Shown: in pieces, positions 3,611 to 64,000 of the stretch
Numbering within the stretch: position 1 is the first letter of the stretch
Layout of the letters: each line of letters starts with the position of its first letter
From: Eledone cirrhosa
Taxonomy: Eukaryota
Direction: 5' to 3'
NCBI GenBank assembly: GCA_964016885.1
Contig: OZ024741.1
Coordinates: forward strand, 126,170,001-126,234,000
Length of the DNA stretch: 64,000 nt
Notes under the pieces: generated by a model
Told to the model about the DNA's origin: nothing
What the model saw: only the letters and a program-made list of their open reading frames with translations
Database searches by the model: none
Position numbers and translations under genes: made by a program

Positions 3611-3676
3611 TATTTTGTCTGAGGAAGGCATAGCATATTGTTAATATGATATCCCTGAAATATATATAATGAAATA
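3611..3676 (+). ncRNA. Type I hammerhead ribozyme (TATATA stem III, family A)
   Basis: tattttgt-CTGAGGA-stem II-GAAA-tatata-TA-atgaaata; stem I pairs with G.U wobbles; same family as 7925-8190. Confidence 0.75.
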
Positions 3677-3741
3677 AATATGGTTTTAGAAAATAATGAA
3701 ATAAATATGGCTTTATAAATATAGTTTCCATTTATTTAATA

Positions 3742-3789
<48 letters not shown>

Positions 3790-7770: not shown

Positions 7771-8190
<420 letters not shown>

Positions 8191-8366
8191 AACCTTCTCC
8201 AAAATCTGTTGAGTGCTTTTATATCAGTTATAAAATATTTACTCGTTGTAACCCTACAATTTTAAATAAAACTTTTGCATATATATATATATATATATAT
8301 TAGAAAGTGAGGTTTTTTTTACAAAATGAAAAATAACCGAGGTGTCCTACACGAGTGAAAGTATAA

Positions 8367-15086: not shown

Positions 15087-15110
15087 TATATATATATATA
15101 TATATATATG

Positions 15111-15430
15111 ACCAAAGATTAATATGGTTCGTTGATTACCCAACGAATACAGTTTTACAATAGATTAGAAGCACTCAACAAAAAGTTTTCCTGGAGTATT
15201 TAATATTATTAAAAATGTTAACAAATGAAAAATATTCGCATAATCAAAATATATACTTCATTATATATATTTCAAAGGTACTGTGCTGTTTTTTCAGTAC
15301 GTCCTCATCAGACAAAATATATGTTTTGTCTGATGAGGACGTACTGAAAAAACAGCACAGTACCTTTGAAATATATATAATGAAGTATATATTTTGATTA
15401 TGCGAATATTTTTCATTTGTTAACATTTTG

Positions 15431-15438
<8 letters not shown>
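15111..15438. mobile_element. Hammerhead element family B with fold-back (15203-15438); HHRs at 15251-15322 (-) and 15319-15390 (+)
   Basis: atatgttttgt-CTGATGA-ggacgtactg..cagtaccttt-GAAA-tatata-TA-atgaagtatat; (TA)n on both sides; homolog at 31551-31761. Confidence 0.85.
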
Positions 15439-15466
<28 letters not shown>

Positions 15467-15544
15467 GTTATTCCAGGTTGAATCGGAGGTAACCACAGTA
15501 AGTAAGGTACTCAATACATACCAGAGTATAAAAGTTTTAACATA

Positions 15545-15643
15545 GATGAGATTCTACAGGACTAGAACTGTTTCATTATTTAGAAATCATCAGAGATTCC
15601 TGATAATTTCTAAAGAATGAAACAGTTCTAGTCCTGTAGAATC

Positions 15644-31469: not shown

Positions 31470-31550
31470 GTGCGTGTGTGTGTGTGTGTATATATATACA
31501 TATATACATACATATATATGTATATCTATATAGATCTATATATGTATATA

Positions 31551-31761
31551 ACCAAAGATTTATATGGTTCATTGATTACTCAATGAATATAGTTTTACAA
31601 TAGATTAAAAGCACTCTACAAGGAAGTTTTCTGGAGTTATTAATATTATTCAAAATATTAATAAATGAAGACATTCACATAATCAAAATATATGTTTTAT
31701 TATATATATTTCGAAGGTACTGTGCTGTTTTTTCAGTACGTCCTCGTCAGATAAAATACAT
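31551..31761 (-). mobile_element. Family B hammerhead element (HHR 31690-31761)
   Basis: ttttat-CTGACGA-ggacgtactg..cagtaccttc-GAAA-tatata-TA-ataaaa; homologous to 15111-15320. Confidence 0.8.
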
Positions 31762-32647
31762 GAATTGATGTATGACATACCTCAACGGTCTTGATGGTTC
31801 AATTCCAGTATTGGCAGTGATTTATTACAACAAACCTCAACATTTATAAACCACAAATAATAACATAATAAACTTAAATTTAAAGAAGAAAAGGATGTGG
31901 AGCGAGATATGGGTATATATGAAGGGGGTTAATATGAGGAAATGCAAGAAGAAAATAAATAAACAGATACATACATAAATATTTAAATGAGTAAATAGAA
32001 GTATTAGGGAATACATATATAAAAGGAAAAAGGAAGAGAGAGAGAAGTGAAAAGAAGAACGAAGAAATAACGACAAAAAAGAAAGAAAGAAATGAGGTGG
32101 ATAGGTATAAAGACCGTTGTTTTCAAATATTAAGTCAAATTGAGGCAACCAATTAAATAATATGAAATTTTTAATATCTTTTGTATTTGGTTATGTTTAA
32201 GCTAATTATACTTATATATTATATCAAAATTAAACAATATAAAAATATTTTCTATAGCCATCAGATATAGTTTAATTAAGTAATATATTCATTAAATATT
32301 TTGTTACAACATTTAAACATTTTTTATCTTTAAAGCATATTTAGATAATTATTAAATATGTATAGAGCTATTTATTAAAACATATGCATATATCACCATC
32401 AGTATATATATTTTATATTACATTAATATCATTTGTTATCTGAATTATTATATTTTCTTTATAAAATCATTTCAATTCATTGATTGTCATTTCATTACAG
32501 GATTAATTTGTAGTTATATTTATTCTCAAAAGTTTTATTATTCCTAATTTACTTCCATAAAATAAAGTACCAGTAATGTACTGGGTTATTGCTGGCCTTG
32601 TGCCAATAGTAGAAACCATAATTACTTATTATTATATATAGTTTCCC

Positions 32648-33199: not shown

Positions 33200-34846
33200 G
33201 TATAATGCTTGAAAAGTTCTTCCAGACTTATGTTGACAGCTACTAAATAACTCATTTTTCTTATTAATTAAATTACCATAATTTGTAATTATCAATAGTC
33301 TCTAAATTGCAAAGATTGCAATTTGGTGAATTGGATGCATTTCGGTAGGAATCAGTATACTTTAACTTACTCCAAAAAATTGAGTATTTGATATTTTTTT
33401 CCTTCAAAGACCATATTAATTGTGAGAGTGATGTAGACATTTTTTTATCTGGATTAGAAAAAGAATGTTTATGATTATAAAAGCGAAACTTAAACTTAGA
33501 TGAAGTGGCACCAATGTAGTCATATGTATTATTATTATTATTCTTAATAGTACATTTATACACCAGATTCTTGTGAAGGCAGTTATTTTGTAAAGGGCAT
33601 TCTGATTTCCTTCTACAGTTACAATTCATTTCGATGTTATTTCTATAACCTAAACTATTCGTATTATTATTATTATTGGGTGGTGGTTTGGCAGTATCGG
33701 TAGAGGGTCGGACAACATGCTTTGTAGCACAGAGTTACGCCCCTTTCTGATCTGAGTTCAAATCCTGCCGAGGTTAACTTTGTCTTCATCCTTACGAGGT
33801 CGATAAAATAAAGTACCAGTAATGCACTGGGTAATTGCTGGCCTTGTGCCAGTAGAAACAATTATTATTATTATTATTTAGAGGTGTTCTACTATTATTT
33901 GTATTTAAACTATTATTATTGTTATTCCAATTAACTAATGTATTATTATTATTATTGTTATTATCGCTAATTATATGCTGGTTCAAATTAAGATTTTTAC
34001 TATTTATTTTTGCTATATTTTGAGCAATATTCATAGTTGTTGAATAAGAGAGTTTAACTGTGTGTCTATTGATGATAGAGTAAAACTTATCTGATCTAGG
34101 GAAACATTTATCCAAGGCTTTAAAAAATAAATGTGCTAAAGGTGTTTTAATAGCTAAAGATGCTGGCGGAGCATACCAAATTATAGATCTAGTCCTTATT
34201 TTTCCCCCCAATTTATTCCTCAAGTTGTTGTTTTTACAGTCAATTCCATTATTGTTATTATGAATACTGAGATTATAATTAATATTATTTTCTTCTACAT
34301 ACTCAATATTATTTTTATATCCTGCTTTATGTAAGGCTTCATTATAATATACTGCTTTACTATTAAATATGGATCTATTAGCAGATAGATCCATATTTGT
34401 TGTTGGATATTCGTTGTTGGACACTGTTGACTATTGCATTTTTAACACTTTTAGGATGATTAGAGTAAAAACTAACATAATTTAAGTTTCATTGAGTTTA
34501 TGGAAGGGGTAATAGAAGCCTGAATTCAAATTAAGAGTTAAATCTAAAGAATTAACTATTTTATTGTTATTTTCTACTTCTAATTTCAGGTCATAATTTT
34601 TAAAGAATTCTATAATTACTTTCTTTACACTATTTAATTCGCTATTATTATGTCTATCTACAGTAAGTAATATGTCGTCTCCATATAAACCACCGGTAAT
34701 CTCCGGCAGTTTTCTATTTATCATATTAAGGATGAAAATTCCCACAAGATCGGTAACTTGCGCCGAATCAGACGAGCCCATAGTAATGTCAACATTTTTC
34801 TGCCTATCTGATCTAGTCCAAAAATCATTATTAAAATCAATCAAGT
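33200..34846 (-). pseudogene. 5'-truncated, frameshifted PLE (same lineage as 177-2513)
   Basis: MGSSDSAQVTDLVG, YGDD, IIWYAPP, CNCRRKSECPLQNNCL, LVY..YIG; interrupted by a SINE. Confidence 0.9.
33678..33866 (+). mobile_element. SINE family 1 inserted in the poly-Asn (AAT)n tract of the PLE
   Basis: (TTA)n on both sides; the PLE frame continues across the insertion. Confidence 0.88.
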
Positions 34847-34958
34847 AGAATTATTTATATATATATATATATATAAAGAATTCTACTTGATTGATTTTAA
34901 TAATGATTTATATATATTTATTGATATGATTATATATGATTTATATATATTTATATAT

Positions 34959-36374
34959 AAATTGGAATAAATGCTCTGAAATAGCGATATATATGTGAAT
35001 ATAGACATAGAATATTCGAAAATATTCTGTATGTTTATAATAAACATTTTGAAGACCTAATCGCTATAGAATAGAATACGTCACGTATTACAATTAGATT
35101 CTCGATAAAAGCAAGGGAAGTAATCTACGCGTTTCATTCTTGTTAGAAATCTTCAGGACTACATATCCAGTGCTTTTATCGAGAATGACACAGCTAGAGA
35201 CTTATAGAATACTTAGCTGTGTACAGGAACTGGTTTGAAAGAGCGGTTGCCGGTCCGGCAGAAATTAGAAATTGGAATAAATGCTCTGAAATAGCGATAT
35301 ATATGTGAATATAGACATAGAATATTCGAAAATATTCTGTATGTTTATAATAAACATTTTGAAGACCTAATCGCTATAGAATAGAATACGTCATACAGAA
35401 TATAAACATACAGAATATTTTCGAATATTCTATGTCTATATTCACATATATATCGCTATTTCAGAGCATTTATTCCAATTTCTAATTTCTGCCGGACCGG
35501 CAACCGCTCTTTCAAACCAGTTCCTGTACACAGCTAAGTATTCTATAAGTCTCTAGCTGTGTCATTCTCGATAAAAGCACTGGATATGTAGTCCTGAAGA
35601 TTTCTAACAAGAATGAAACGCGTAGATTACTTCCCTTGCTTTTATCGAGAATCTAATTGTAATACGTGACGTATTCTATTCTATAGCGATTAGGTCTTCA
35701 AAATGTTTATTATAAACATACAGAATATTTTCGAATATTCTATGTCTATATTCACATATATATCGCTATTTCAGAGCATTTATTCCAATTTCTAATTTCT
35801 GCCGGACCGGCAACCGCTCTTTCAAACCAGTTCCTGTACACAGCTAAGTATTCTATAAGTCTCTAGCTGTGTCATTCTCGATAAAAGCACTGGATATGTA
35901 GTCCTGAAGATTTCTAACAAGAATGAAACGCGTAGATTACTTCCCTTGCTTTTATCGAGAATCTAATTGTAATACGTGACGTATTCTATTCTATAGCGAT
36001 TAGGTCTTCAAAATGTTTATTATAAACATACAGAATATTTTCGAATATTCTATGTCTATATTCACATATATATCGCTATTTCAGAGCATTTATTCCAATT
36101 TCTAATTTCTGCCGGACCGGCAACCGCTCTTTCAAACCAGTTCCTGTACACAGCTAAGTATTCTATAAGTCTCTAGCTGTGTCATTCTCGATAAAAGCAC
36201 TGGATATGTAGTCCTGAAGATTTCTAACAAGAATGAAACGCGTAGATTACTTCCCTTGCTTTTATCGAGAATCTAATTGTAATACGTGACGTATTCTATT
36301 CTATAGCGATTAGGTCTTCAAAATGTTTATTATAAACATACAGAATATTTTCGAATATTCTATGTCTATATTCA
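34959..36374. mobile_element. Retrozyme-like array: 310-bp monomer, about 1.4 inverted copies (34959-35393) plus about 3.1 tandem copies (35401-36374)
   Basis: Copies appear identical. HHR gtagtc-CTGAAGA-tttct aaca agaat-GAAA-cgcg-TA-gattac at 35588, 35898, 36208 (+) and 35120-35162 (-); stem I extended by attctcgataaaagca/tgcttttatcgagaat. Confidence 0.92.
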
Positions 36375-36417: not shown

Positions 36418-36876
36418 TTTTGAGTTTATGTTGGTTGTATACCAACACCTCAGTATGCAGGCTGGAGCACTCGACGAAGTGCGCAGGTTGGTTTGGTTAC
36501 TCCGGAGTAATGTAAAATAAAGTTAAATAAAAAGTCAAATGTTTAAAATTTAGCTTCGTTTATTACTGTTATATATATTTCAGTGACAGCCATCTTTGGC
36601 TGTGACCTCTTCAGGCAGTTTGAATTAGTATGGTATAGACAAGTACATATGTTGTTGAGGTGTATAATATTGTCAATACTCTGATATGCCCAGTTCCTGG
36701 TTGGGTTGTTATTTCACTGAGGAACTGGAATCATATGATTCCAGTTCCTGTACTTGTCTATACCATACTAATTCAAACTGCCTGAAGAGGTCACAGCCAA
36801 AGATGGCTGTCACTGAAATATATATAGCAGTAATAAACGAAGCTAAATTTTAAACATTTGACTTTTTATTTAACTT

Positions 36877-36885
<9 letters not shown>
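36418..36885. mobile_element. Hammerhead element family C with inverted arms; HHRs at 36565-36619 (-) and 36777-36831 (+)
   Basis: actgc-CTGAAGA-ggtcacagcca aaga tggctgtcact-GAAA-tatata-TA-gcagt; homolog at 55798-56056. Confidence 0.85.
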
Positions 36886-36961
<76 letters not shown>

Positions 36962-38822: not shown

Positions 38823-39929
38823 CGAAGGAAATGTGGTAAGGAACCAGGTGGACCATAACGCACCAAAGTACTCAATACTTAGGGTAGTAGAGTAGGTAAT
38901 AGGAACGAGTAGGACCCCGACGGCTGAGCTCAGGCCGTTTCGACGGCTAATTCTGGACAAATTACCACTCTATTACCCACTCTACAACCCTAAGTATTGA
39001 GTACTTTGGTGCGTTATGGTCCACCTGGTTCCTTACCACATTTCCTTCGTTATCTAGCTCCTATTCCCGTAGTAGAGCACTTTCCGACCCTACCACGCCG
39101 TATTCAGACTTTTCCGCTAAGCTCAAGTTCTTTCACCCGCACCATGCGAAAACACAACATCGACTTCTCTACCAAGAACATCCCAGTTCCACCGAAAAAA
39201 CTTTACCTTTGGATGCTCACGCAAAAAATCGATCTATTTGCGAAAAGACTTAGATGGAGAACTTTTTTCTACGACAGATATTGCGACAATCAGGACTTCG
39301 GTACCAAGGAGAGATTCGGATCTAATACCTACAAATCTCCCCCTCCGAACCTTATGCTCTCACCCTTCGAGAATGACCTTTTCCAACTGGTCAAGAACAT
39401 TAAATTCAAACCCAGACGCAACCGATTCCTACAAAAACTCCGTAGCAACTTAACAGATTATGATAACACCAATGACATCATGGTGCACTCGGATAAAACT
39501 GGTAACCTCTACTTTGTCAACCCCGACAGATACCACACACTGATCAGGAGCAGCCTAAACTCCACCTATAAAAAGGCTAACCACTCATGCATCGAGGACA
39601 TAAATCGAGATGGACAACAAATTACCTCCAGCCTCGGGGTCGCCGACCGCACGGAACTCCTACACCCACGGACACCCTACTTCACACTGAAGGACCACAA
39701 ATCCGATTTCGACCGTAAACCTTCTATCAGGCTTATAAACCCAACGAAGTCCGACATAGGGAGAATCAGCAAAGAAATCCTAGACCACGTTATACCAAAA
39801 GTTAAGCAACACGCCAGACTTAGCCTATGGGTCAACACACAGGAAGTAATCTCATGGTTCAGCAATATAAAAGAGTCCAGAATTAGCCGTCGAACGGCCT
39901 GAGCTCAGCCGTCGGGGTCCTACTCGTTC

Positions 39930-40009: not shown

Positions 40010-40317
40010 TGGCAACCATTCACAGTGTGGCTCAATGACGAATTAATTAATTAAATCAACAATAAGAGCAATATATAAGAAAGTAAGTCCTTAGAATCAT
40101 TAGATAAAATATATACACTATTTCTTCTCCCAATCAGCATAATCAACCATACAAAAAATCATTTAAACGAGGCTATAAGTTTAAAATATACCTACAAAGA
40201 AATAATAGATAAATAAATGATAGCTTTTTATCCGCGATTCACAGCCACAGAAAATTTACCTAGTATTTCTGATAATTTTTAGTTATAACGTCCGTGATAT
40301 TTGCTCTGATCTGAACA

Positions 40318-40531
40318 AACATCACGGACGCTCTATCTCAAAATTATTTTTGAAAAGCATTAGAAATGCGCAACCGGTAAAACTTAAAACCAAAACTGAA
40401 TACTAACCAATACAATTACTAATTCTCACTTATTCCTAATTAAACTATTTTTCACTGAACAATTTGTCAGCATTTTCTATTCCGTTTACCAATATATAAT
40501 AACTTGTGTGTTACACCTCTATTCTTTTAAA

Positions 40532-40608
<77 letters not shown>

Positions 40609-40624
40609 ATATGTATGTGTGTAT

Positions 40625-40684
<60 letters not shown>

Positions 40685-40764
40685 ATATATATATATGTAT
40701 ATATATATGTATATATATATGTATATATATATGTATATATGTATATATTATATATGTATATCTA

Positions 40765-40837
<73 letters not shown>

Positions 40838-40860
40838 GTGTGTATAAGTGTGTACATATA

Positions 40861-40893
<33 letters not shown>

Positions 40894-41288
40894 TTAAAAG
40901 AATAGAGGTGTAACACACGAGTTATGATACATTGGTAAACGGAAAAGAAAATGCTGACAAATTGTTGACAGTGGAAAATACTTTATTAGGAATAAGCGAA
41001 AATTAGTAATAGTATTGGTTAGTATTCAGTTTTGGTTTTAAGTTTTACCGGTTGCGCATTTCTAATGCTTTTCAAAAATAATTTTGAGATAGAGCGTCCG
41101 TGATGTTTGCTCTAATCTGTGATGTTTGCTCTATCTCAAAATTATTTTTGAAAAGCATTAGAAATGCGCAACCGGTAAAACTTGAAACCAAATCTGAATA
41201 CTAACCAATACTATTACTAATTTTCACTTATTCCTAATTAAACTATTTTTCACTGTGAACAATTTGTCAGCATTTTCTTTTCCGTTTA

Positions 41289-41555: not shown

Positions 41556-44530
41556 ATATTGTTATACTTGGGGAGGGTCATATTTGTGTAATATTGCCAG
41601 AATTAATAACAGAAAACACTCACTGTTTGGTTGGTTTTCGCTTCTCGCTGTCTTTTATATCTGCGATCTAACTTAATCGGTCCTCAATGTTGCCATTGAC
41701 TGACCGACGGTCAAAAATAATACAGATACAATATAGACACAAACACATATATATAGTTTACATAATTTACATAAATCTTTCGTTGCACATCTGCAACATC
41801 GTCAGTGGTGTTATATTTTTTCCTCCTGTTGTGTTGTATGCCTACGCCATTTTTTATTCAGTCTGTCTATATATTTATTTATTTATTTGCTTGTTTGTTT
41901 ATTTTATTTTGTCTTCTTTGCGCATGCGTTTGCGTGTGTGTACCCCACATCACCAACACGAGCGAAGTTGCACAACAAACACACGATGGGAGAGAAAAAA
42001 TCCTCAACGCTCACATGATGATGTGGACTGACATCCTAAAGCCAAGCAGACGCACTGCCAACAACTTCCAGGCGTCTAACAATGGCATACCACCCTTGTA
42101 TGGGCTCCGCAAAGACCACAAGACAGTCGACGACCCGACAACAGGACCACCAACAAGACCCGTATGCTGAGCTAATATAGCTAGCAACTACAGGATCTCC
42201 TACTTCCTCTCGATGGTTATACGCCCCATAATCAAGATGTCCCCAGATGTATGTGAAAGTACAGAGGACCTCCTCAGCAGAATCAGTGAGTGCAACAAAA
42301 ACAGGAGCCTATCCAACTGCATAATAGGCAGCATGGATGTGGTGTCACTGTACCCATCCATTAACATTGATTTTGCTGTGAAAAGATGTGTGGAGATGAT
42401 CATCGAGAGTGAGGTGGAGTTCTGCGACGTCGACACACGAACTGGGCCTCCTACTTAGACTTACCTACGACACTGACTACCTAGACAGCCATGACCTTAG
42501 ATGTTTCTGCCCTAGTAGACCTATAAGAGGTAGACCCCCCCACCATAACCTCAATGGCAAAAAAGACTCCCATGGGAAGGTGGATTGGGTGGACCAAAGC
42601 TATACGGACCCCCCAAAACAATGATCAGGTAAGAAAAATGGTCGCACATGCAATAGGGGCTAGTATCAAAACTACCCTAAAGGGCCACATATTTAAGTTC
42701 AATGAGAAAATCTACACCCAAAATGAAGGAGCAGCCATCGGCGTCAGCATAGCTGGTGATGTTGCCAACCTTTTCATGGTATGGTGGGAAAGGAGACTTA
42801 AAGATCTCCTTAATGAAAGCTCCATAGACCTCATCATGTACTCTCGTTATGTAGACGATATCAATATAGTTATAAGAACACCCCCACTAGAGAGCACTAA
42901 CAAGTTCGAATTAGAACGTAGCACAATGGAAAGCATCCAGCAGATAGCTAATTCCATACACCAGAGTATAACTGTAACTATCGACTTCCCTTCCAAACAC
43001 CCAACAATAGACTACCTGTATTAGACACAGAACTCTGGATTAACACTATAGACGAGAGAGCCCAAATTCTCCACTCACACTATGCTAAACCCATGGCCTC
43101 TAAATACCTGATACTCAAAAACTCAGCAATGTCCAGTAGTGCTAAGTTTAATATTCTGATCGCAGATTTGGTACGAGTGATGAAGAATGTGTCCAGCATG
43201 TGCGACCCAACAGAAATGGAAAGACACATCCAACACTTCATCAACCGCATGCAGTTCTCTGGCTACAACCAAAGAGACAGAGTCAGAGTATACGAAGGAG
43301 CCATGGAAAAGTATAAGACCCTAATAGAACTGGACATGAAAGGAATTTGCCCATTATACAGGAGCAAATCATGGAATAGCTTAGATAGGGCTAGACATAA
43401 GATAGGGAAGGCCACATCATGGTACGACAACCAGAGATATCAGAGTGTCATGTTTGTGGACGCCACCCCTGGAGGGAAATTAGCTAACCAGTGTAGAAAG
43501 GCCCTGAGAAAGACCCACTTAAAAATAAAGGTGGTAGAAAAGCCAGGAACCACCATAAAATCCCTGATCAGCAAAGCCTACCCCTTTAAGAAAACCCACT
43601 GTACCAATAGGAAATGTATCATATGTAAGGTGAACCCCCGGATAAACTGTAAAACTAGAAACGTAGTCTATAGCATAAGATGTACAGAGGGTACTTGCAG
43701 AAACATGACAACAACATACATAGGCGAAACAGCTCGTAGCATAGGTGAAAGGATAGACCAACACTGGGGGGAACTAAAAGGACGAAAAAACGGGTCAGTA
43801 CTATACGAACATGCTAGACAACAACATGACGGTAACATAGACAACATAGAAATTAGAATAATATCTAAACATAGGAATGACCCAGCAGATAGGCAAATCA
43901 GAGAGGCCAGTGAAATAGAAATTAGAAGACCAAAGCTAAACAGAAAGAATGAGTGGAACAACAACAACACCCAAACAAACAATACTGACCTAAGAGAAGT
44001 ATAAATAAGTAAATAAAATAAAATAAAATAAGATAAATAAATACATACACAAGCACAATAACAACAAGCACATAAACACACACTAGTCACCCAGCAGACA
44101 CAACACTATACACACTAATCACACAGCAAACGTAACACTATACACACACGCAAACGCATGCGCAAAGAAGACAAAATAAAATAAACAAACAAGCAAATAA
44201 ATAAATAAATATATAGACAGACTGAATAAAAAATGGCGTAGACATACAACACAACAGGAGGAAAAAAAAATATAACACCACTGACGATGTTGCAGATGTG
44301 CAACGAAAGATTTATGTAAATTATGTAAACTATATATATGTGTTTGTGTCTATATTGTATCTGTATTATTTTTGACCGTCGGTCAGTCAATGGCAACGTT
44401 GAGGACCGATTAAGTTAGATCGCAGATATAAAAGACAGCGAGAAGCGAAAACCAACCAAACAGTGAGTGTGTTCTGTTATTAATTCTGGCAATATTACAC
44501 AAATATGACCCTCCCCAAGTATAACAATAT
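41556..44530 (+). mobile_element. 5'-truncated PLE flanked by an inverted pLTR pair (41556-41942 and 44141-44530); RT + GIY-YIG pseudo-ORF 41943-44004
   Basis: LYGLRKDHK, MDVVSLYPSI, GAAIG, RYVDD, VVY..YIGET..R..H; one in-frame TGA and about 3 frameshifts; pLTR has CTGACGA-tgttgca gatg tgcaac-GAAA at 44281. Confidence 0.92.
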
Positions 44531-51059: not shown

Positions 51060-51513
51060 GTGAATTTGTCACTACTTTAAAACAATAGCTTACGGTCTTC
51101 AAAATGCTTTTAATTAAGCATAAAGTGTATTGTAAAATACGTTATATATACATCCATATATATATTGCTACTTCAGAGCTCCAATTCTAATTTTTAATTT
51201 CTACCTGACCAACAATCGCTCTGCATAATCAGCTCCTGATTATTTACTAGATTTCTATAAGAATATTACATCAATGATCTCAGTAGACAGGTAGGGTAGT
51301 TGGCCTTGATAAGCTTCAACCAAAGCGAAACAAGTCTTGTCGGCTTATCTCCCCTGTTTGCTGAGATCAAAGTGAGTGAATTTGTCACTACTTTAAAACA
51401 ATAGCTTACGGTCTTCAAAATGCTTTTAATTAAGCATAAAGTGTATTGCAAAATACATTATATATACATCCATATATATATTGATATTTCAGAGCTCCAA
51501 TTCTAATTTTTAA
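51060..51513 (+). mobile_element. 316-bp monomer, about 1.4 tandem copies, with a U3:A8 hammerhead (51302-51345)
   Basis: ggcc-TTGATAA-gctt caacca aagc-GAAA-caagtcttg-TC-ggct; stem I extended by gatctcagtagacagg/cctgtttgctgagatc. Confidence 0.82.
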
Positions 51514-51530
51514 TATATATATATATATAT

Positions 51531-52623
51531 ATATTAGAAAGATCGAGTATCGAAAAATCGGCGCACGAGTTCACGATAAACAATATTCGAAATGAGCGGC
51601 AGAGGGCTCAATAATTCAATTGAATCAGAGCTATAACTATCGTTAAAATACCGTCACACATAGAACAAGTCTACAATCAACCATACGATAAAAAATCGAT
51701 AATAGAAGATTCGGGACAAACAGATAAAAAATATCAATAAAACAATACATCAATAATTTAAATGAATGTAAAATCATACCCGGACCCACTAGAAAGGTGT
51801 TAAATCTAGCTTCTTGGGTTTCTGTAAATCCTTAGACTGTACTCTATCAGCTCACATATAAATATAAAAGCCTACTAGAGCAAGAAGAATGGAGTTTACT
51901 TCATCAACGAGCTTTTTTCCTAGCGGATAAGGGGCTAACCACCAGTGAAAAACGCACATGGCATTCGACAAGGGAGATAACCTCTACATCCGCGAAAACT
52001 ATTCGAGGAAATGTGGAAATACACATATCGAATAAGAGTGCTCAATAGACATGTTAAAATAAAACAAAAGCTATTCATCACTCAATAGAATCGACAAAAA
52101 ATGAGCAACAAAATTAACTGGTGGATAGCTATGTCAAGAGCTAAAAATATTAGAAAGATCGAGTATCGAAAAATCGGCGCACGAGTTCACGATAAACAAT
52201 ATTCGAAATGAGCGGCAGAGGGCTCAATAATTCAATTGAATCAGAGCTATAACTATCGTTAAAATACCGTCACACATAGAACAAGTCTACAATCAACCAT
52301 ACGATAAAAAATCGATAATAGAAGATTCGGGACAAACAGATAAAAAATATCAATAAAACAATACATCAATAATTTAAATGAATGTAAAATCATACCCGGA
52401 CCCACTAGAAAGGTGTTAAATCTAGCTTCTTGGGTTTCTGTAAATCCTTAGACTGTACTCTATCAGCTCACATATAAATATAAAAGCCTACTAGAGCAAG
52501 AGGAATGGAGTTTACTTCATCAACGAGCTTTTTTCCTAGCGGATAAGGGGCTAACCACCAGTGAAAAACGCACATGGCATTCGACAAGGGAGATAACCTC
52601 TACATCCGCGAAAACTATTCGAG
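51531..52623 (-). mobile_element. 616-bp monomer, about 1.8 near-identical tandem copies, with a candidate U3.G8 hammerhead (51778-51912, 52394-52528)
   Basis: gctcg-TTGATGA-agtaaa..tttaca-GAAA-ccca..tggg-TC-cgggt; flanked by (TA)-rich tracts. Confidence 0.7.
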
Positions 52624-52707
52624 ATATACATATATATATATACATATATATATATATACATATATACATATATATACATATATATATATATATTCATATA
52701 TATATAC

Positions 52708-52740
<33 letters not shown>

Positions 52741-53061
52741 CATATATATATACATATATATATATACATATATGTATATACATATATATATATACATATA
52801 TATATATACATATATATATACATATATATATATACATATATATATACATATACATATATATATACATATATACATATATACATATATATATATACATATA
52901 TACATATATACATATATATATTTATATATATACATATATACATATATATATTTATATATATACATATATACATATATATATTTATATATATACATATATA
53001 CATATATAAATATACCAATATATATATATATATACATATATATACATATATATATACACAC

Positions 53062-53092
<31 letters not shown>

Positions 53093-53167
53093 CACATATA
53101 TATATATATATACACATATATATATACACATATATATATATATATATACACATATATATATATATAT

Positions 53168-53221
<54 letters not shown>

Positions 53222-53277
53222 TATATATATATACATATATATATACACTTATATATATATACATATATATATATGCA

Positions 53278-53309
<32 letters not shown>

Positions 53310-53324
53310 CATATACATATATAT

Positions 53325-55193
53325 ATAAATTGAAACAAAATGAAAACGAAATTTCATTTCTCACTCTTAGTATGGCACTTACTTAAATGTAAGTATGCAT
53401 GTATACGTACATACAAATATGTATAAAGACGTACAGTAGCATGCACATATATATATATATATACATATATATATACATATGCATACAGGTACACATACAT
53501 ATATGCACGTATCAGTTTAGCGGCGCTAACGTCGCTTTGTTCGTTTGTAAACAAACTGAACAGCCTGAATTTATGCCATACGGTGTTAAGGCAACCACGT
53601 CACCTTTTTGTTCAACACTGACACAGGAACGATGTACTAGTTTCAAGCTTGTTAGCTATCATCAGCACCGTTTACCCATCTGCCAGATAGTTGAACGTTC
53701 GAAAGTATATACTTTCCTTATGAAAATTAACGGCTGAGCAGCCTAATTTGCATATTGAGTGAGTTAAATCGGTCAGGCATACCGAAAACGATAAATTGAA
53801 ACAAAATGAAAACGAAATTTCATTTCTCACTCTTAGTATGGCACTTACTTAAATGTAAGTATGCATGTATACGTACATACATATATGTATACAGACGTAC
53901 AGTAGCATGCACATATATATATATATATACATATATATATACATATGCATACAGGTACACATCTGGCAGATGGGTAAACGGTGCTGATGATAGCTAACAA
54001 GCTTGAAACTAGTACATCGTTCCTGTGTCAGTGTTGAACAAAAAGGTGACGTGGTTGCCTTAACACCGTATGGCATAAATTCAGGCTGTTCAGTTTGTTT
54101 ACAAACGAACAAAGCGACGTTAGCGCCGCTAAACTGATACGTGCATATATGTATGTGTACCTGTATGCATATGTATATATATATGTATATATATATATAT
54201 ATGTGCATGCTACTGTACGTCTGTATACATATATGTATGTACGTATACATGCATACTTACATTTAAGTAAGTGCCATACTAAGAGTGAGAAATGAAATTT
54301 CGTTTTCATTTTGTTTCAATTTATCGTTTTCGGTATGCCTGACCGATTTAACTCACTCAATATGCAAATTAGGCTGCTCAGCCGTTAATTTTCATAAGGA
54401 AAGTATATACTTTCGAACGTTCAACTATCTGGCAGATGGGTAAACGGTGCTGATGATAGCTAACAAGCTTGAAACTAGTACATCGTTCCTGTGTCAGTGT
54501 TGAACAAAAAGGTGACGTGGTTGCCTTAACACCGTATGGCATAAATTCAGGCTGTTCAGTTTGTTTACAAACGAACAAAGCGACGTTAGCGCCGCTAAAC
54601 TGATACGTGCATATATGTATGTGTACCTGTATGCATATGTATATATATATGTATATATATATATATATGTGCATGCTACTGTACGTCTGTATACATATAT
54701 GTATGTACGTATACATGCATACTTACATTTAAGTAAGTGCCATACTAAGAGTGAGAAATGAAATTTCGTTTTCATTTTGTTTCAATTTATCGTTTTCGGT
54801 ATGCCTGACCGATTTAACTCACTCAATATGCAAATTAGGCTGCTCAGCCGTTAATTTTCATAAGGAAAGTATATACTTTCGAACGTTCAACTATCTGGCA
54901 GATGGGTAAACGGTGCTGATGATAGCTAACAAGCTTGAAACTAGTACATCGTTCCTGTGTCAGTGTTGAACAAAAAGGTGACGTGGTTGCCTTAACACCG
55001 TATGGCATAAATTCAGGCTGTTCAGTTTGTTTACAAACGAACAAAGCGACGTTAGCGCCGCTAAACTGATACGTGCATATATGTATGTGTACCTGTATGC
55101 ATATGTATATATATATGTATATATATATATATATGTGCATGCTACTGTACGTCTGTATACATATATGTATGTACGTATACATGCATACTTACA
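53325..55193. mobile_element. Retrozyme-like array: 466-bp monomer, about 1.4 inverted copies (53325-53960) plus about 2.6 tandem copies (53961-55193)
   Basis: HHR aacggtg-CTGATGA-tagct aaca agctt-GAAA-ctag-TA-catcgtt at 53977, 54443, 54909 (+) and 53628-53672 (-). Confidence 0.92.
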
Positions 55194-55248
55194 TATATAT
55201 ATACATATATGTATGTACGTATACATGCATACTTACATATATATATAC

Positions 55249-55297
<49 letters not shown>

Positions 55298-55331
55298 CAT
55301 ATATATACATATATTTATGCATATATATATT

Positions 55332-55363
<32 letters not shown>

Positions 55364-55495
55364 CATATATATATACACACGTATATATATTTATACATAC
55401 ATATATATATACACACACACATATATATATACACACACACACATATATATATATATATACACTTATATATATATATATATATACATACAAATATA

Positions 55496-55526
<31 letters not shown>

Positions 55527-55731
55527 CACTTATATATATATATACATACATATATATAATATATATATATATACACTTATATATATATATATACATACAT
55601 ATATATAATATATATATATATACATTTATATATATATATACATACATATATATAATATATATATATATACACTTATATATATATATACATACATATATAT
55701 AATATATATATATATACACTTATATATATAT

Positions 55732-55797
<66 letters not shown>

Positions 55798-55801
<4 letters not shown>

Positions 55802-56056
55802 AGTATATGTTGGTTGTATACCAACACCTTAGTATGCAGGCTGGAGCACTCGACGAGGTGCGGAGATTGGTTTGGTTACCCCGGAGTAATGTAAAATAAA
55901 GTTAAATAAAAAGTCAAATTTTTAAAATTTAGCTTCGTTTATTACTGCTATATATATATTTCAGTGACAGCCATCTTTGGCTGTGACCTCTTCAGGCAGT
56001 CCGAATTAGTGTGGTATAGACAAGTACATATGTTGTTGAGGTGTATAATTTTGTCA
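55798..56056 (-). mobile_element. Family C hammerhead element (HHR 55944-56000)
   Basis: Homologous to 36418-36675; stem III is one TA unit longer. Confidence 0.82.
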
Positions 56057-56390: not shown

Positions 56391-56589
56391 TCTATATATT
56401 GTATTTTTAAAGTGCCCAGAAAAACTGTTTCCTTTGAGCTCATTTAATTACAGGATTATACGCGAGTCCTTTGCTCCGTTATTTTTACTATATATATTTA
56501 TATATATATATATATATATACGTTATTCCGGGTTGAATCGGAGGTAACCACAGTGAGTAAGGTACTCAATACATAGCAGAGTATAAACG

Positions 56590-57461: not shown

Positions 57462-58429
57462 TGAAAAATGGCGTGCTGCGTTGTTGTGAATATGAACATA
57501 TGAATAAAAATAGACCGAGAAACAGGACAAGTCCGTCATCAGTAGTCTGCTGATTCTCATTGGTATTTCTTCGCATTAAAGACTAGATACCTAAAGTCAG
57601 TGCGAGCGATAACTAAATTAAGTTATCGGGACAGAGGAAAGTGAACAAACAACATGGTAATAACGCAACGCAAAGAGAGGAAAAGAGAGACAAGTCAATG
57701 AATATTGTGGGCTTAAGTCCGACAAATCAAATGACGAAAAGAAAACAGACACGTCTGAGCCACGAAAAAAGTGAGAGTAAAGAATTAACGCAGGTCAGAC
57801 GGGAGGAAGTGAGAGCGGTGGAGTAGCAGAGAGTGAGTGAGTGAAAGTGTGAGGAAGGGGCCAGCTGAGAGTGTGTGACCAGCAGCGGGGATGGAGGAAA
57901 GCAAGAGGTAAGGGGGAGAGAGAAAGAAGAAAGCAGTAAGGTAACAGAAAAAATATGAACCACAGCGAAAGTAAAATATATGTGAATGAAAAAATGGCGT
58001 GCTTCGTTGTTGCGAATGTTTTATTCATATGTTCATATTCGCAACAACGCAGCACGCCATTTTTCATTCACATATTTTCCCTTCGATGTGGTTCGTATTT
58101 TTTCTGTTACCTTACTGCTTTCCTCTTTCTCTCCCCCCCCTTACATCTTGCTTTCCTCCATCCCCGCTGCTGGTCACACACTGTCAGCTGGCCCCTTCCT
58201 CACACTTTCACTCACTCACTCTCTGCTACTCCACCTCTCTCAATTCCTCCCGTCTGACCTGCGTTAATTCTTTACTCTCACTTTTTTCGTGGCTCAGACG
58301 TGTCTGTTTTCTTCTCGTCATTTGATTTGTTGGACTTAAGCCCACAATATTCATTGACTTGTCTCTCTTTTCCTCTCTTGACGTTGCGTTACTACCATGT
58401 TGTTTGTTCACTTTCCTTTGTCCCGATAA
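57459..58429. repeat. Inverted plus direct pseudo-LTR-like repeat at the 5' end of the downstream PLE
   Basis: 57623-58012 is the diverged reverse complement of about 58040-58429; 57459-57509 repeats the inner end. Confidence 0.8.
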
Positions 58430-61400
58430 CAAAAGAAGGCATCACCTCGCCCCTACCCCTACATCCTCCACACAACTACCACGCGGATTCCCAAGCAACA
58501 AATATAGTAATAGAGAATCAGCTACAAGATAGACACTACAACTTCTCTCCCACCAGGAGAAACCATAGAATCCCCCACACTTACAACCCCCTAACATCCC
58601 CACACAACAAACCCACAACCATCATTACTTTCAACATAGAACAAAAAATAGACAACTACCACGCATGCCACATAGGGTCTCACAACCACACACCAACTAT
58701 AAGGAAACCCTAATCTACCCTCCTCCCCTAACCACATCCTACTACAACAACACCAGCAAGGGACAGTACAACCACACGAGACCACCCTAACCACTACAAC
58801 CAGCATAACTACACACCACACAACAACAACAGCAGGACTCAATATAACCACACAAGACAACCCTACTATAAATACCACCAAGTCTAAACACCCTACAACA
58901 GCAGCAGGGCTCAACACAACCATACGATACAACCCAACTTCAACAACCACCACAACTTCACACCCTATAACCACGTCCATCAAATCTGCACACCCTACAA
59001 CAACAACAGCAGAGCTCAATACAACCACACGATACAACCTAACTTCAACAACCACCACAGCTACACACCCTCTAACAACAACAGCAGGGGCCAATACAAC
59101 CATAAGCGACATCCAAACTTCAACAACCACCACAACTTCCGTAGTCATTTTTTAGACAGCACACAGGGTAACACGATAACACAAAACACACAGGAGACAT
59201 AAAATGTAATACAAATCGTTAATTTAACCTCAAAAGAATTAACAACAGACCAAATCAACATACTCTCCAAAGGTGTTCAATTTACACCAACTTCCCAACG
59301 ACCAAACTACCTCGAAATGAAGGAAGATATTGTAGAATTCTGTAGAAAACTAAGACTCAGCGAGCAACTATACGACAAATACAATGAGGATGACTCAATA
59401 GCCAGAAATAGAAGCAACTTCACCCCACCAAAAGCAAGAACAAATTCCTCGATCAATTCTGCGAACACATTACTAATAACCTTTAACAGGATTGATGATT
59501 GATGGTCGTTAGTTGCCAGTGTGGTAAGTGATAGTATCCTCGTTGGATTATCTTGTTGACATAGACGTGAGGGAAGGTCCCTCGATCTATTTACAATATT
59601 CCTTTCGTCAGGTCGCCAATTCCAGCAGCATGGATTATAGATGTTATTGAGACACGAGTAACATAATAATGATTTCAACAGCAGTAATTAGAGATGAAAT
59701 GTATGTTTATTTTTGATGTAGCACAAACAATGTTTGTTAACTTATATGGTTGAAGTTACAGATAAAAAGAGGTTACAAAAGGGAATGTGCCATTAAGCCG
59801 GCGAGGCTAGGGTGCAAGATCTCACCATTACATTATGCGTGTTGCTGGCTTGAAGTTTCCGGTACAAGAGGAAGATTCTTCAAATCTTCGCGGGGAATTT
59901 CTTTCCCAGGGCGCGTAGGGATACATCCTCTTCTACTGGCGCTGATTGGCTGAACTGAGCCAAATCACGCACAGAGAATGTATGTGAGCCCGCGGAATGT
60001 AGGTCACTACAATACCCCCTTTCTAGACGGTAGTCGATACAGATTATTAAATTAGCAAGAACAAATGCTGAAAGAGCACATCAGTGACAAAACAGTTGAG
60101 CAGAAGGCTGCATGCAAGAAAAAATGAGGCGCTACGGGCCGTGTTGAGCCGCTGTGTCAAATGACCAGTTGTTTTGTTGTTTATACGTGACCGCCAAAGG
60201 TCTAACAAAAACGGATAAAGTCTGACATGGGCGAAGTTGCTGTTCTTGCATTAAATGTCAATGGCAAGTGCTGCACCAGTAGCTGTGGACGAAGCTATTA
60301 TGGTAGTTCACCAGTGCTGGCAAGAAGATGATGGGTAGGCGAGAAAATGTTGGCCTCCCAGATATATTGCCGAAAGTGCTGTGGAGCCAGGAAAAAATGG
60401 CTGGTTGCTTTGTAAAGAAAAAAAGGCAAGTTTAATCTGTAGGTGGGTTGCAGTGTAAATTCCACAATTCGGGCGAATCCACAGAAGTGGCCGAAATGCT
60501 GACAAGTCCAGTTCAATTTGTTGCTTTCCCAGCGAGTCGGGCAAAAACAACAAGACGGATGGCCGTCATGGACGATCAGTGTGCAACGAGGTGCGAAGCT
60601 GTTTGAGTTCAGCTGCAATTAGTATTCTCGTGTTGCGGTGCCTATTTGAATCCAGTGGATTAAGCTCTGTGAGCTGCTAGCATGTGACAGCACCTCAACC
60701 AGGTGAAAAGGGACTCGCAGAATATTACGTTTGAAGAACATATACCAAGAACAACATGTTGGTGTGTGATAAAATAATGTGTGCATATGCAGGCATGTAA
60801 AACAGCAAAGAATGTGAATGAACAAAAACCATTAGCAAGCAAATAGCAAAAGAGCACAAAACAAGTAAATGCATTGCACAAAGAAATATGTGAATGTAAC
60901 AAACTAATAATTCAAAGTCAATCTAAGGGAGCAGAGAAATTGCTCAATAAGTTCAAAGTTTTTCAAAGTCAAATAGTTCACACATCACCAGTGTACAGAC
61001 ATTAGTTCTATCTGAAAACTGAAAAAGAAGTTTGTTAATGCCGTTAGGGGTTAGATGTATGGTGTTTTTGTGAGTTTTCGTGGCCATCTTGTGTGGCATA
61101 AGGTTGTGTTGCTTATTGTTAAAGCAAAGTCAAAGAATCTTCTGTAGAGTAGCAGTCACCAAACATGGCAGCCACGTCTGACGCCATAATGGTGAGAAAA
61201 CTACTGTCTCAATTTCTCGAGTCCCTGTGGTAACGAGACAGAAGGTATGGTGGTTGCGTCGGTAAAGTTACAAGCCGTTTTGAAATTTCCGATGTGTGGT
61301 GGTTTGCGTCGGTAAGGCTATGAAGCTGCCACTCACTGTTCCTTGTATTGGTCAGTGGTTAAACAACGCTGTCGCTGCTGCTGTCGTTGTTGTTGTCAAG

Positions 61401-64000
61401 TGTAGTTAGGACTTGTCGGTAGCCAACTTGAAAATTTTTCGTGGCGAAAATGTTTTTGAAATACTGCCAATTTTCAAAAAATTTTGAAAGGAATATATTG
61501 TATTTTCGCAAGTTGCGAAAAAGGTTGGCAACGTGGCAATAAAAGTTCAACTGAATGAAAAAGAAGGGCTGCGTTAAATTCTTACGTCGGTCATCACTTT
61601 AACAGGATTGATGATTGATGGTCGTTAGTTGCCAGTGTGGTAAGTGATAGTATCCTCGTTGGATTATCTTGTTGACATAGACGTGAGGGAAGGTCCCTCG
61701 ATCTATTTACAATATTCCTTTCGTCAGGTCGCCAATTTCAGCAGCATGGATTATAGATGTTATTGAGACACGAGTAACATAATAATGATTTCAACAGCAG
61801 TAATTAGAGATGAAATGTATGTTTATTTTTGATGTAGCACAAACAATGTTTGTTAACTTATATGGTTGAAGTTACAGATAAAAAGAGGTTACAAAAGGGA
61901 ATGTGCCATTAAGCCGGCGAGGCTAGGGTGCAAGATCTCACCGTTACATTATGCGTGTTGCTGGCTTGAAGTTTCCGGTACAAGAGGAAGATTCTTCAAA
62001 TCTTCGCGGGGAATTTCTTTCCCAGGGCGCGTAGGGATACATCCTCTTCTACTGGCGCTGATTGGCTGAACTGAGCCAAATCACGCACAGAGAATGTATG
62101 TGAGCCCGCGGAATGTAGGTCACTACAAACCCATACCACCACCTACACAGACATAAACAAAAACCAAACCTAAGCAAAAAAGAATGGAATGGTCTTAACA
62201 GTCTAAAGAACGACAAAACCCTAACAATCAAAGAGGAGGATAAAGGGTGTGCAATAATCCTTATGAGGACAGATTACTACACGACTCTAGTACTCTCAAC
62301 TCTAGAAAACCATACATATTACGAAAAGGCCCAACACTACACACAACAGAAAATAATGAGAAACCTAAAATCCCTAATAACCCTTTACAAAGAAGGCCTT
62401 ACCGACAAGGAATACAACTTCATCACAAATTTCAAAAGCAGAACCAGCCTCTTCTACGGTATCCCAAAGACACACAAAAGCGAAGTAATAGGCAGAGCCT
62501 GCAAGTAAGCCACAGACATTTACATCAATATACCCCCTCCTGATGACCTTAAATTAAGACCCATAATAGAAGGTACCACATGTGAAACACACCACATAAG
62601 CAACTCCCTAAATATTCTGCTTAAACCTTTCCTAAAACACATAAAAAGCTTCATAAGGGATGACCTTGACATGCTCAACCACCTCCCAACAACACTTAAT
62701 AATGGACATACCCTACTAGTAACCTTTGATATCATCAATCTATATTCCAATATCCCACACAACCTAGGTATAGAGGCAATACAATTCTGGCTTGAAAATT
62801 TCCCTAATGAACTTCCGCAGCGCATCCCTAAAGAATTTGTGTTGGAGGGACTCAAATTCATCTTGGAAAACAGCTTCTTCGAATTCAATGCCAAATACTA
62901 CAGACAGAAATCTGGGACTGCCATGGGCACGAAAGTAGCCCCTCATACGCCAACCTTGTCATGGGATATTTGGAAACCACTCTCAACCGCAAAGTTCTAG
63001 ACAAATACAGTAACCACTTCTACCGACACATAGAAAAAAACTGGAAGAGATATCTGGACGACTGCTTCATCCTCTGGCATACAAGTATAGAAAGACTGAT
63101 TGAGTTTAAAACCCTTCTAAATGGACTCAACACAAACTTACAATTTACAATGGATTACAGCCATGAACAACTCCCTTTCCTCGACATCCTCATCAAGAAA
63201 ACAAACAACAAAATAGAAACAGACATATACTACAAACCCACAGCCTCCACACAATATCTTCCATTTAACTCGTGCCACCCTCGCTATACCAAAATTGCAA
63301 TTCCTTATAACCTAGCCAGAAGGAACTGCACAATAGTTTCAGATAAATACACATGCTACACACGACTAGAAGAATTAAAGAACGCACTTATCAGCAGAAA
63401 CTACCCACCTTCCCTAATCAACAATGGATTCCAACGTGCCCTAAAGCTCAACATCCAGGAACTCAGACACCCCAAACCCAGGAATGAACCGCAACAGAAA
63501 ACTCTACTACACATCTCCACACACAACCCCCTCAACAATGAGGCATTCGAGACCATCCTCCAGAACATTCCTTTACTAAAATGACACTCAAGAATGAACA
63601 AAATCCTCCAAACACACAACATCATAAACAGCAAAAGACAACCTAAATCCATAAAAAAACATCCTCACACAAGCCAAAATCCAATCAACCCTCACGATGA
63701 ACCCTACAGTAAAAATAATGCGGAAGGCCCAACTGTGGCATCTAATAGATAGTTCAACATACCATTTTAAACAAGGACAACATTTCACAGTTAAACACAA
63801 CTTTACATGTGCATCTGAAAACCTAATCTATGTTTTGACCTGCTCAGGTTGTCAAGAGCACTACATAGGACAGACAAAAAAAACAGCCTTCGACAACTTA
63901 TGACCGTCCATAGATCACAAATCAAAATACGGGAATACAGAAAATTTGCTTTTAGTGAACATATCGCCAATTGTACACCTAACCAACATCCAAACTTAAA
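58430..64000 (+). mobile_element. Decayed Neptune-like PLE (RT + GIY-YIG), split by an LTR element at 59482-62127 and running off the window
   Basis: IVNLTSKELT..LSKG.QFTPT, IKEEDKG, FYGIPKTHK, FDIINLYSNIPH, GTAMGT, RYLDD, FLDI, SCHP, FTCASENLIYVLTCSGC..YIGQT; stops and frameshifts. Confidence 0.9.
59482..62127 (-). mobile_element. Non-autonomous LTR retroelement: 530-bp LTRs (59482-60011, 61598-62127), 1.6-kb internal region, AACC target duplication
   Basis: LTRs differ at 2 sites that I could see; they start TGTAGTG and end GTTAAA on the minus strand; PPT AGAAAGGGGG at 60015-60024; PBS-like TGATGACCGACGT next to the 5' LTR. Confidence 0.92.

Follow-up and report, generated by a model that had tools for sequence, protein, structure and literature searches.

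The window, a 64,000-nt stretch of DNA, carries at positions 53325 to 55194 an array of a 466-bp unit, composed of two arms of opposite orientation and embedded in a TA-rich microsatellite. Its features are given below, with monomer positions numbered from the predicted cleavage site.

52624..53324, unstranded: left (TA/CA)n target microsatellite, adjoining the 3' end of the inverted arm
53325..53962, minus strand: inverted arm, 638 bp or 1.37 monomers, with 2 mismatches (53416 and 53426)
53961..53962, unstranded: head-to-head (5'-to-5') junction with a 2-nt microhomology, AT
53961..55194, plus strand: tandem arm, 1234 bp or 2.65 monomers, running from monomer position 413 to a 3' end at position 248
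54481..54946, plus strand: one full monomer, bounded by predicted cleavage sites (these fall after 54014, 54480, and 54946)
55157..55244, plus strand: 44-nt tandem duplication across the right end, made up of the final 38 nt of the element and 6 nt of TA flank
55195..55797, unstranded: right (TA/CA)n target microsatellite, adjoining the 3' end of the tandem arm

The copies of the tandem arm show 0 mismatches. The inverted arm has its 5' end at monomer position 139 and its 3' end at position 308–310, inside the left TA run; the two outer 3' ends of the array thus lie 62 nt apart on the monomer, both facing outward into TA-rich DNA. The junction is asymmetric and devoid of a palindrome, the inverted arms being separated by 190 nt. 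An earlier note on this DNA had described about 1.4 inverted and about 2.6 tandem copies in TA-rich DNA, in agreement with the measured values of 1.37 and 2.65. A target duplication, which exceeds 4 bp in non-LTR retrozymes when present, is unreadable within the microsatellite flanks, and the 44-nt duplication at the right end reflects either a second priming at one site or slippage at a later time.

The unit is non-coding: the frames of at least 120 aa that overlap the array are all of low complexity, and an ORF of the RT plus GIY-YIG kind between pLTRs is absent from the frames checked. The GC content is 0.37 across 54001–55000, and a gap of 200 N is located about 1.4 kb from the array. Directly left of the microsatellite, a near-perfect 477-bp direct repeat with a period of 616 (51531–52623) lies between two TA runs; it has a partial-tandem layout, with no hammerhead detected.

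Hammerhead ribozyme of the 466-bp unit

The array carries four hammerhead motifs, with cores at +53984, +54450, +54916, and -53665, i.e. three consecutive complete hammerheads with a period of 466 and an inverted one; non-LTR retrozymes are defined by two or more in succession. In all four copies the motif reads CTGATGA / T-AGC-TAACAA-GCT-T / GAAA-CTAG-TA, with the CTAG palindrome and the U.U pair at the base of stem II, as previously noted. The anatomy is detailed for the middle copy.

53623..53679, minus strand: hammerhead of the inverted arm, by motif
53970..54026, plus strand: tandem-arm hammerhead, copy 1, by motif
54436..54492, plus strand: type I hammerhead, middle copy, by motif and fold reading
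54441-43/54487, plus strand: 3x1 internal loop of stem I, middle copy
54444-49/54481-86, plus strand: stem I, 6 bp, middle copy
54450-56 and 54471-74, plus strand: intact core, middle copy
54457/54470, plus strand: U.U pair (10.1/11.1) at the base of stem II, middle copy
54458-60/54467-69, plus strand: stem II, enclosing loop II (54461-66), middle copy
ACTAGT, plus strand: stem III of the middle copy, 2 bp with the CTAG palindrome; the cleavage triplet is GUA
54902..54958, plus strand: tandem-arm hammerhead, copy 3, by motif

This anatomy fits the canonical metazoan type I, with an intact core, an NUH triplet, a helix I of 6 bp, a helix II of about 4 bp, and a palindromic helix III of 1–2 bp; the class is described as cleaving in dimeric form and as having a helix I of 6 bp, a helix II of 4 bp, and a helix III of 1–2 bp whose loop is palindromic (PMC4209133). 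The same U.U pair at the base of stem II is reported for the axolotl HHR_Amex2, and axolotl motifs of this type are reported to cleave slowly as monomers (PMC7229834). According to another report, only one of nine predicted retrozyme dimers cleaved in vitro (bioRxiv 10.64898/2026.07.22.740005). The palindromes of this unit and of the 310-bp unit (see below) give predicted 6-bp duplexes, with energies of -6.8 and -9.5 kcal/mol. The predicted 466-nt circle has an energy of -152.4 kcal/mol (z -8.6 against 60 shuffles) and is 67% paired, a high pairing that is owed in part to the TA hairpin; the hammerhead fold is predicted to lie 2.1 kcal/mol above the minimum. In a whole-window Rfam scan, hammerheads were absent among the best 150 of 240 rows, which are microsatellite- and miRNA-type noise.

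Comparison with the 310-bp and 316-bp families

Two other hammerhead-bearing units of comparable length are found in the window.

34959..36374, unstranded: 310-bp retrozyme array, with the same layout as the 466-bp array
34959-35393, minus strand: inverted arm of the 310-bp array, 1.40 copies
35401-36374, plus strand: forward arm of the 310-bp array, 3.14 copies
51060..51514, plus strand: 316-bp unit, a third family, about 1.4 copies, ending in a TA run

The 466-bp and 310-bp arrays share, as the earlier note proposed, one architecture of head-to-head arms, outward 3' ends, and TA-rich flanks. The 310-bp hammerhead reads CTGAAGA / T-TTC-TAACAA-GAA-T / GAAA-CGCG-TA. The 3' ends of its array fall on monomer positions 167 and 130, a distance of 37 nt; its junction contains a 7-nt templated insert whose source lies just within the forward arm, and there is a possible 16-bp target duplication, of low complexity. 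The absence of overall similarity between the two units holds outside the ribozyme: their best local alignment is equalled in 17/500 and 203/1000 shuffles under two scoring schemes, and their global alignment without the hammerhead in 36/300. Overall significance was reached under none of the three scoring schemes used. At the 3'-end site there is one weak colinear block, equalled in 56/2000 shuffles and in 83/5932 and 48/5939 control windows. This TGCCNGACCG block, just past the site, is not relied on as a trace of homology, being borderline at best (1723/12639 window pairs) and belonging to different predicted hairpins.

The 316-bp unit is about 74% identical to the 310-bp unit over 145 nt. 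Its hammerhead carries a U3-A8 core variant, a CAACCA loop II, a G10.1-C11.1 pair, a UAG/U bulge, and a longer stem III. We considered a decayed hammerhead cut after 51336 and set this reading aside: the U3-A8 pair and the longer stem III, judged by eye, favour a variant core that would cut after 51341. The U3-A8 covariant is reported in Schistosoma PLE hammerheads (PMC4209133). The 316-bp and 310-bp units are related and bear different hammerheads, suggesting exchange of the ribozyme module or divergence.

Hammerhead-like motifs are also found as an inverted pair at 15540–15642, with the stem II of the 310-bp unit, a loop two bases shorter, and CTAG within a longer stem III loop, the core being broken in one copy. 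A related end recurs at about 56481–56587, ahead of the N gap.

Loop II, the stem I bulge, and their variation

Of the 10 occurrences of CTAACAAG in the window, 8 fall within the 466-bp and 310-bp hammerheads. The loop II sequences of the two families are identical, as claimed by the earlier note; in place of an AACA tetraloop, however, a hexaloop UAAYAA closed by C-G is the better reading; it takes the form UAACAA in both arrays and is not invariant. The hexaloop pattern YAANNA is preferred because the 316-bp unit has C and A at the positions that hold U and A elsewhere.

Variation was surveyed by aligning 4596 contigs of the public run X1, which may derive from the very sample of the window, to a 406-nt piece of the array; the number of matching contigs reveals a large family of high copy number. 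Position 4 of loop II is U in 52% of X1 depth and in 67% in run X6, and N7 varies in 42% of X1 depth; between 54450 and 54482, no other variant of at least 3% is listed in X1. Free variation of the loop, named earlier as grounds for refutation, is not observed, and the five invariant loop bases carry little power, as only about 23 of roughly 350 covered X1 sites vary. What seems to count is that both variable hammerhead sites also differ between the families. In stem I, a compensatory pair is formed by 54483 T>G, with a share of 38% in X1, and 54447 G>T, with one of 6%; these shares do not agree, and the pair is seen in phase only in a single low-depth contig of run X12.

In stem I, beyond six pairs, a 3x1 internal loop is common to the three families. 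Its sequence is UAA/U in the 466-bp unit (UAU in 43% of X1 depth), UAU/U in the 310-bp unit, and UAG/U in the 316-bp unit. Covariation is seen in stem II and the 3-8 core pair among only five sequences, the 466-, 310-, and 316-bp units and two metagenome contigs: 4 of the 6 pairs change on both sides, giving a score of 0.77, which is reached by 0/500 shuffles, while slid controls attain at most 0.17. Loop II and the stem I bulge of the 466-bp unit align with those of Rfam HH9 (18.5 bits, E 0.058; gathering score 52); for the 310-bp unit no Rfam match was obtained. Conserved contacts between loop I and loop II are described as standard for type I hammerheads (PMC6155905, PMC3088659). Since all three families oppose loop II with a UAN/U bulge in stem I, the shared loop is likely this known contact and no new recognition motif. 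The tertiary contact put forward in the earlier note thereby gains support, from the bulge and from the HH9 alignment, as a predicted contact of an already known type. The loop common to the 466-bp and 310-bp units appears best explained by ribozyme folding together with a shared ancestry of the hammerhead module, and is of modest interest, most likely reflecting known hammerhead architecture.

The metagenome contigs L001 and L002, the only two matches, carry the same loop and U.U pair with a third, fully paired stem, TCC/GGA, which hints at a broader hammerhead subtype. Stems I and III of these contigs look imperfect. The strict loop pattern gave 0 matches among the viral and prokaryotic contigs searched. 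The six viral matches of a looser pattern were taken as chance, stem II being paired in 0/6. A literature search for UAACAAG together with hammerhead found no related paper.

Loose ends in X1 near 54348 and 54508 reveal variant subfamilies: in one, the hairpin downstream of the hammerhead is fully re-paired, and some have TA/CA directly before position 54328. In X6, a loose end near 54474 reveals another family with the same stem-loop II and TGCA as the palindrome. Parts of the stretch are present in twenty runs under many organism labels; the depth in X6 is about 1000-fold below that in X1, and the raw run X24 gave 0 reads. We draw no host range from these runs, since a repeat of very high copy number may turn up as carry-over.

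Marks of a probable Penelope-type insertion

The 466-bp and 310-bp arrays probably share one insertion mechanism, with the published signature of Penelope-like elements (PLEs). This supports the single mechanism suggested earlier: both arrays have an inverted 5'-truncated copy, offset 3' ends (62 and 37 nt, respectively), and a TA target. Reported marks of PLE insertion are an inverted 5'-truncated copy, a tail of 30–40 bp, and a bias for (TA)n (PMC8557442); the head-to-head orientation is described as the most frequent one and the joints as showing microhomology (PMC3846280). The tail of the 310-bp array, 37 nt, lies in this range, and that of the 466-bp array, 62 nt, is beyond it. Both arrays are flanked on both sides by (TA)n, with one locus per family. 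Opposite-strand joints are found at other positions in three contigs from two runs (two in X1, one in X12), and the inversions therefore recur. A purified PLE protein is reported to cut and extend both strands of AT-rich DNA and to start at two adjacent internal RNA sites, which define the tail; in this sole PLE reconstituted in vitro, hammerhead core mutants left insertion unchanged (PMC11167929).

The window is rich in microsatellites and in LINE and PLE fragments, and it holds a possible source of the enzyme:

177-2513, minus strand: open frame of 778 aa with marks of Hydra-clade PLEs (RWR, DKT, CxCX5C, plus a region resembling GIY-YIG at the C-terminus)

This frame has 249 homologues with identities of up to about 40%, and its protein is a candidate autonomous partner. 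Broken ORFs with Hydra-clade marks lie at 33273–34850 and 38994–39902. The assignment to Hydra rests on motifs (PMC8557442), Pfam having no match on 5/5 RT-like frames; this clade is described as favouring (TA)n and bearing hammerheads (PMC8557442). For a PLE-like ORF of the window, the three named matches among the 120 listed are from Argonauta hians, which makes an octopod the likely host. Within the 64-kb window, no sequence ties the retrozyme units to a specific autonomous PLE or to its pLTR. Further PLE-like RT/endonuclease fragments are found at 42527–44004 and 62119–63584, the latter adjoining a 537-bp direct repeat (59481–60017, 61597–62132), and large inverted repeats at 40313–41112 and 57622–58430.

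Minimal-hammerhead elements, with a long stem II and a TATATA stem III, are located at 3584–3786, 7885–8279, 15087–15438, 31527–31790, 36418–36886, and 55797–56056. They are mostly outward-facing inverted pairs in TA runs, with one short 3' end and the other about 100 nt longer, and are probably 5'-truncated PLE ends. The short elements at 8025/8090, 15311/15330, and 36614/36782 form the same outward-facing pairs as the arrays and have an unrelated stem II. One minimal-hammerhead family, 93% identical between 36418–36675 and 55797–56056, follows the TA run of each array; the same microsatellites may have been targeted. The 310-bp array also adjoins a decayed Hydra-type ORF at its 5'-truncated end (34822–34909); around a TA run, this ORF has a 30-nt inverted copy of its own, and the array is much younger.

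A candidate signal near the 3' ends

A motif shared by both arrays is found close to the left end of the 466-bp array.

53334..53342, minus strand: CATTTTGTT, 3' arm of a predicted hairpin, 7–9 nt ahead of the left 3' end

Internal copies of CATTTTGTT are present at 54307, 54773, and -53808. In each array the left end stops at CAATTT, 7–10 nt past a CATTT(T)RTT motif; in two minimal-hammerhead families, as in both arrays, this motif precedes one 3' end by 7–17 nt. Counting both strands, the window contains 32 occurrences of it, half of them (16/32) in hammerhead-bearing elements. Within 30 nt of clean TA-run borders it is found in 5 of 103 cases, all five being at hammerhead elements and the expectation being 0.64 (p 0.0005, or p 0.03 when counted by the three families); the pattern had been set post hoc from these ends in AT-rich DNA. 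The left end of the 310-bp array is a sixth case, outside the border filter. By family, the motif is found at one end in four out of six and is missing from the 316 and 36782 families, as well as from the right ends of both arrays.

As a lead only, CATTT(T)RTT may be a better candidate cis signal than loop II. It is conceivable, and we put it forward tentatively, that CAUUU(U)RUU, about 7–17 nt before the end and shared with the minimal-hammerhead PLE fragments, is the short U-rich signal by which ribozyme circles of unrelated sequence recruit a single Hydra-type Penelope enzyme, and that this enzyme primes both ends of the TA break and rolls from two start sites. If so, the arrays would provide junction-level proof, and a defined cis element, for the mobilisation of retrozymes by PLEs.

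Proposed mechanism and alternatives

The 466-bp array is, with good probability, an animal non-LTR retrozyme, whose type I hammerhead is predicted to self-cut and circularise and which was likely copied into TA microsatellites by a PLE RT-endonuclease. The array would be transcribed right through, and the multimer would self-cleave after GUA into unit-length RNAs, probably as a dimer since stem III is palindromic and has only 2 bp; this step would be assisted by loop II (UAAYAA) docking on the stem I bulge, UAW/U. The unit RNA would be ligated into a circle. A PLE enzyme would then cut (TA)n on both strands, each DNA end priming reverse transcription from its own start site (about 310 and 248), and each cDNA would run around the template more than once, the 5' ends being finally joined by the 2-nt microhomology. 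Hydra-clade PLEs are the likeliest donors because they are present in the window and have a known (TA)n preference.

The main rival keeps the same element and the PLE enzyme and invokes a single priming event: the cDNA begins at the right end and makes 2.65 turns, after which it folds back by microhomology and serves as its own template, while the left end results from endonuclease resolution or microhomology joining. We regard it as possible, though rather unlikely. Both arms carry one haplotype although the family has several sites at 40–50%, and the identical arms fit fold-back on one cDNA equally well; the junctions show microhomology or a short templated insert, self-priming has been put forward to explain head-to-head PLE copies (PMC3846280), and endonuclease resolution has been suggested to produce the tail (PMC8557442). 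Yet neither junction is palindromic, both being asymmetric, the same CAATTT context marks the left end of each array, and the PLE protein extends both strands in vitro and has two start sites (PMC11167929).

Two other explanations fare less well. That loop II and the U.U pair form a protein-recognition motif, used by unrelated retrozymes to recruit a common mobilising enzyme or ligase, as the earlier note envisaged, would account for an identity between the 466-bp and 310-bp units (closing C-G, U.U, UAACAA) that goes beyond the generic YAANNA and for the same module in two contigs from elsewhere. We consider it improbable: loop position 4 is either C or U, the 316-bp family, with CAACCA and G-C, still ends in a TA run, minimal-hammerhead elements with an unrelated stem II insert alike, and PLE insertion in vitro is unaffected by hammerhead mutants, albeit of the core and not the loop (PMC11167929), while the matching stem I bulge accounts for the loop without a protein. 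A short satellite, amplified as DNA by unequal crossover or replication fold-back from one pLTR-derived copy with no RNA circle, or an inversion created by the assembly, seems very improbable. Amplification at the DNA level is a model discussed in bioRxiv 10.64898/2026.07.22.740005, and the 200-N gap at about 1.4 kb could point to an artefact; against both, the copy numbers are non-integer and circularly permuted, two unrelated units have the same layout and TA ends, the variation preserves the structure, and opposite-strand joints are found in short contigs of public runs. We thus favour the retrozyme copied into TA microsatellites by a PLE enzyme, with twin priming.

Relation to known systems

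A link between retrozymes and PLEs has already been proposed (PMC7229834; bioRxiv 10.64898/2026.07.22.740005). The way in which animal retrozymes move is still a hypothesis, drawn from co-occurrence with PLEs and from pLTR phylogeny; young, mismatch-free arrays with PLE junction marks name candidate start sites, a candidate 3'-end signal, and an enzyme clade, which opens it to the existing in vitro PLE assay format. In the main texts of these two reports, no inversions or tails were found for retrozymes, the first makes no mention of cephalopods or octopus, and the second none of molluscs; their supplements may differ. Our literature search found no paper on cephalopod retrozymes, and the supplements of the retrozyme papers may hold such cases or this loop consensus. 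In giant squid, 235 Rfam hammerheads have been counted (PMC6962438).

In its core, its 6-nt loop II starting with YAA, and its equidistant stem I internal loop, the 466-bp hammerhead resembles Rfam Hammerhead_HH9 (RF02275, clan CL00010), to which we do not assign it: it scores 18.5 bits versus a gathering score of 52, has a short stem III and a U.U pair in place of G-C, and is repeat-borne. The array as a whole resembles the insertions of endonuclease-bearing PLEs (PMC8557442; PMC3846280; PMC11167929) in its partial tandem and inverted 5'-truncated copy placed head to head, its offset 3' ends, its (TA)n target, and its microhomology junction. Unlike these, it lacks an ORF, both its arms exceed one monomer, its hammerhead is canonical and not minimal, and the offset is 62 nt. 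The closest likeness is to animal non-LTR retrozymes (PMC7229834; bioRxiv 10.64898/2026.07.22.740005), especially the axolotl Rtz_353/HHR_Amex2 and the mussel units of 350–390 bp, with which the 466-bp unit shares non-coding tandem units bearing one canonical type I hammerhead each, a short palindromic helix III, a GC content below 50%, and a highly self-paired predicted circle. Its 466 nt are slightly above the size range of 150–450 given in PMC7229834 and within that of 51–972 given in bioRxiv 10.64898/2026.07.22.740005, and the 466-bp retrozyme belongs to an already known class of animal RNA parasites.
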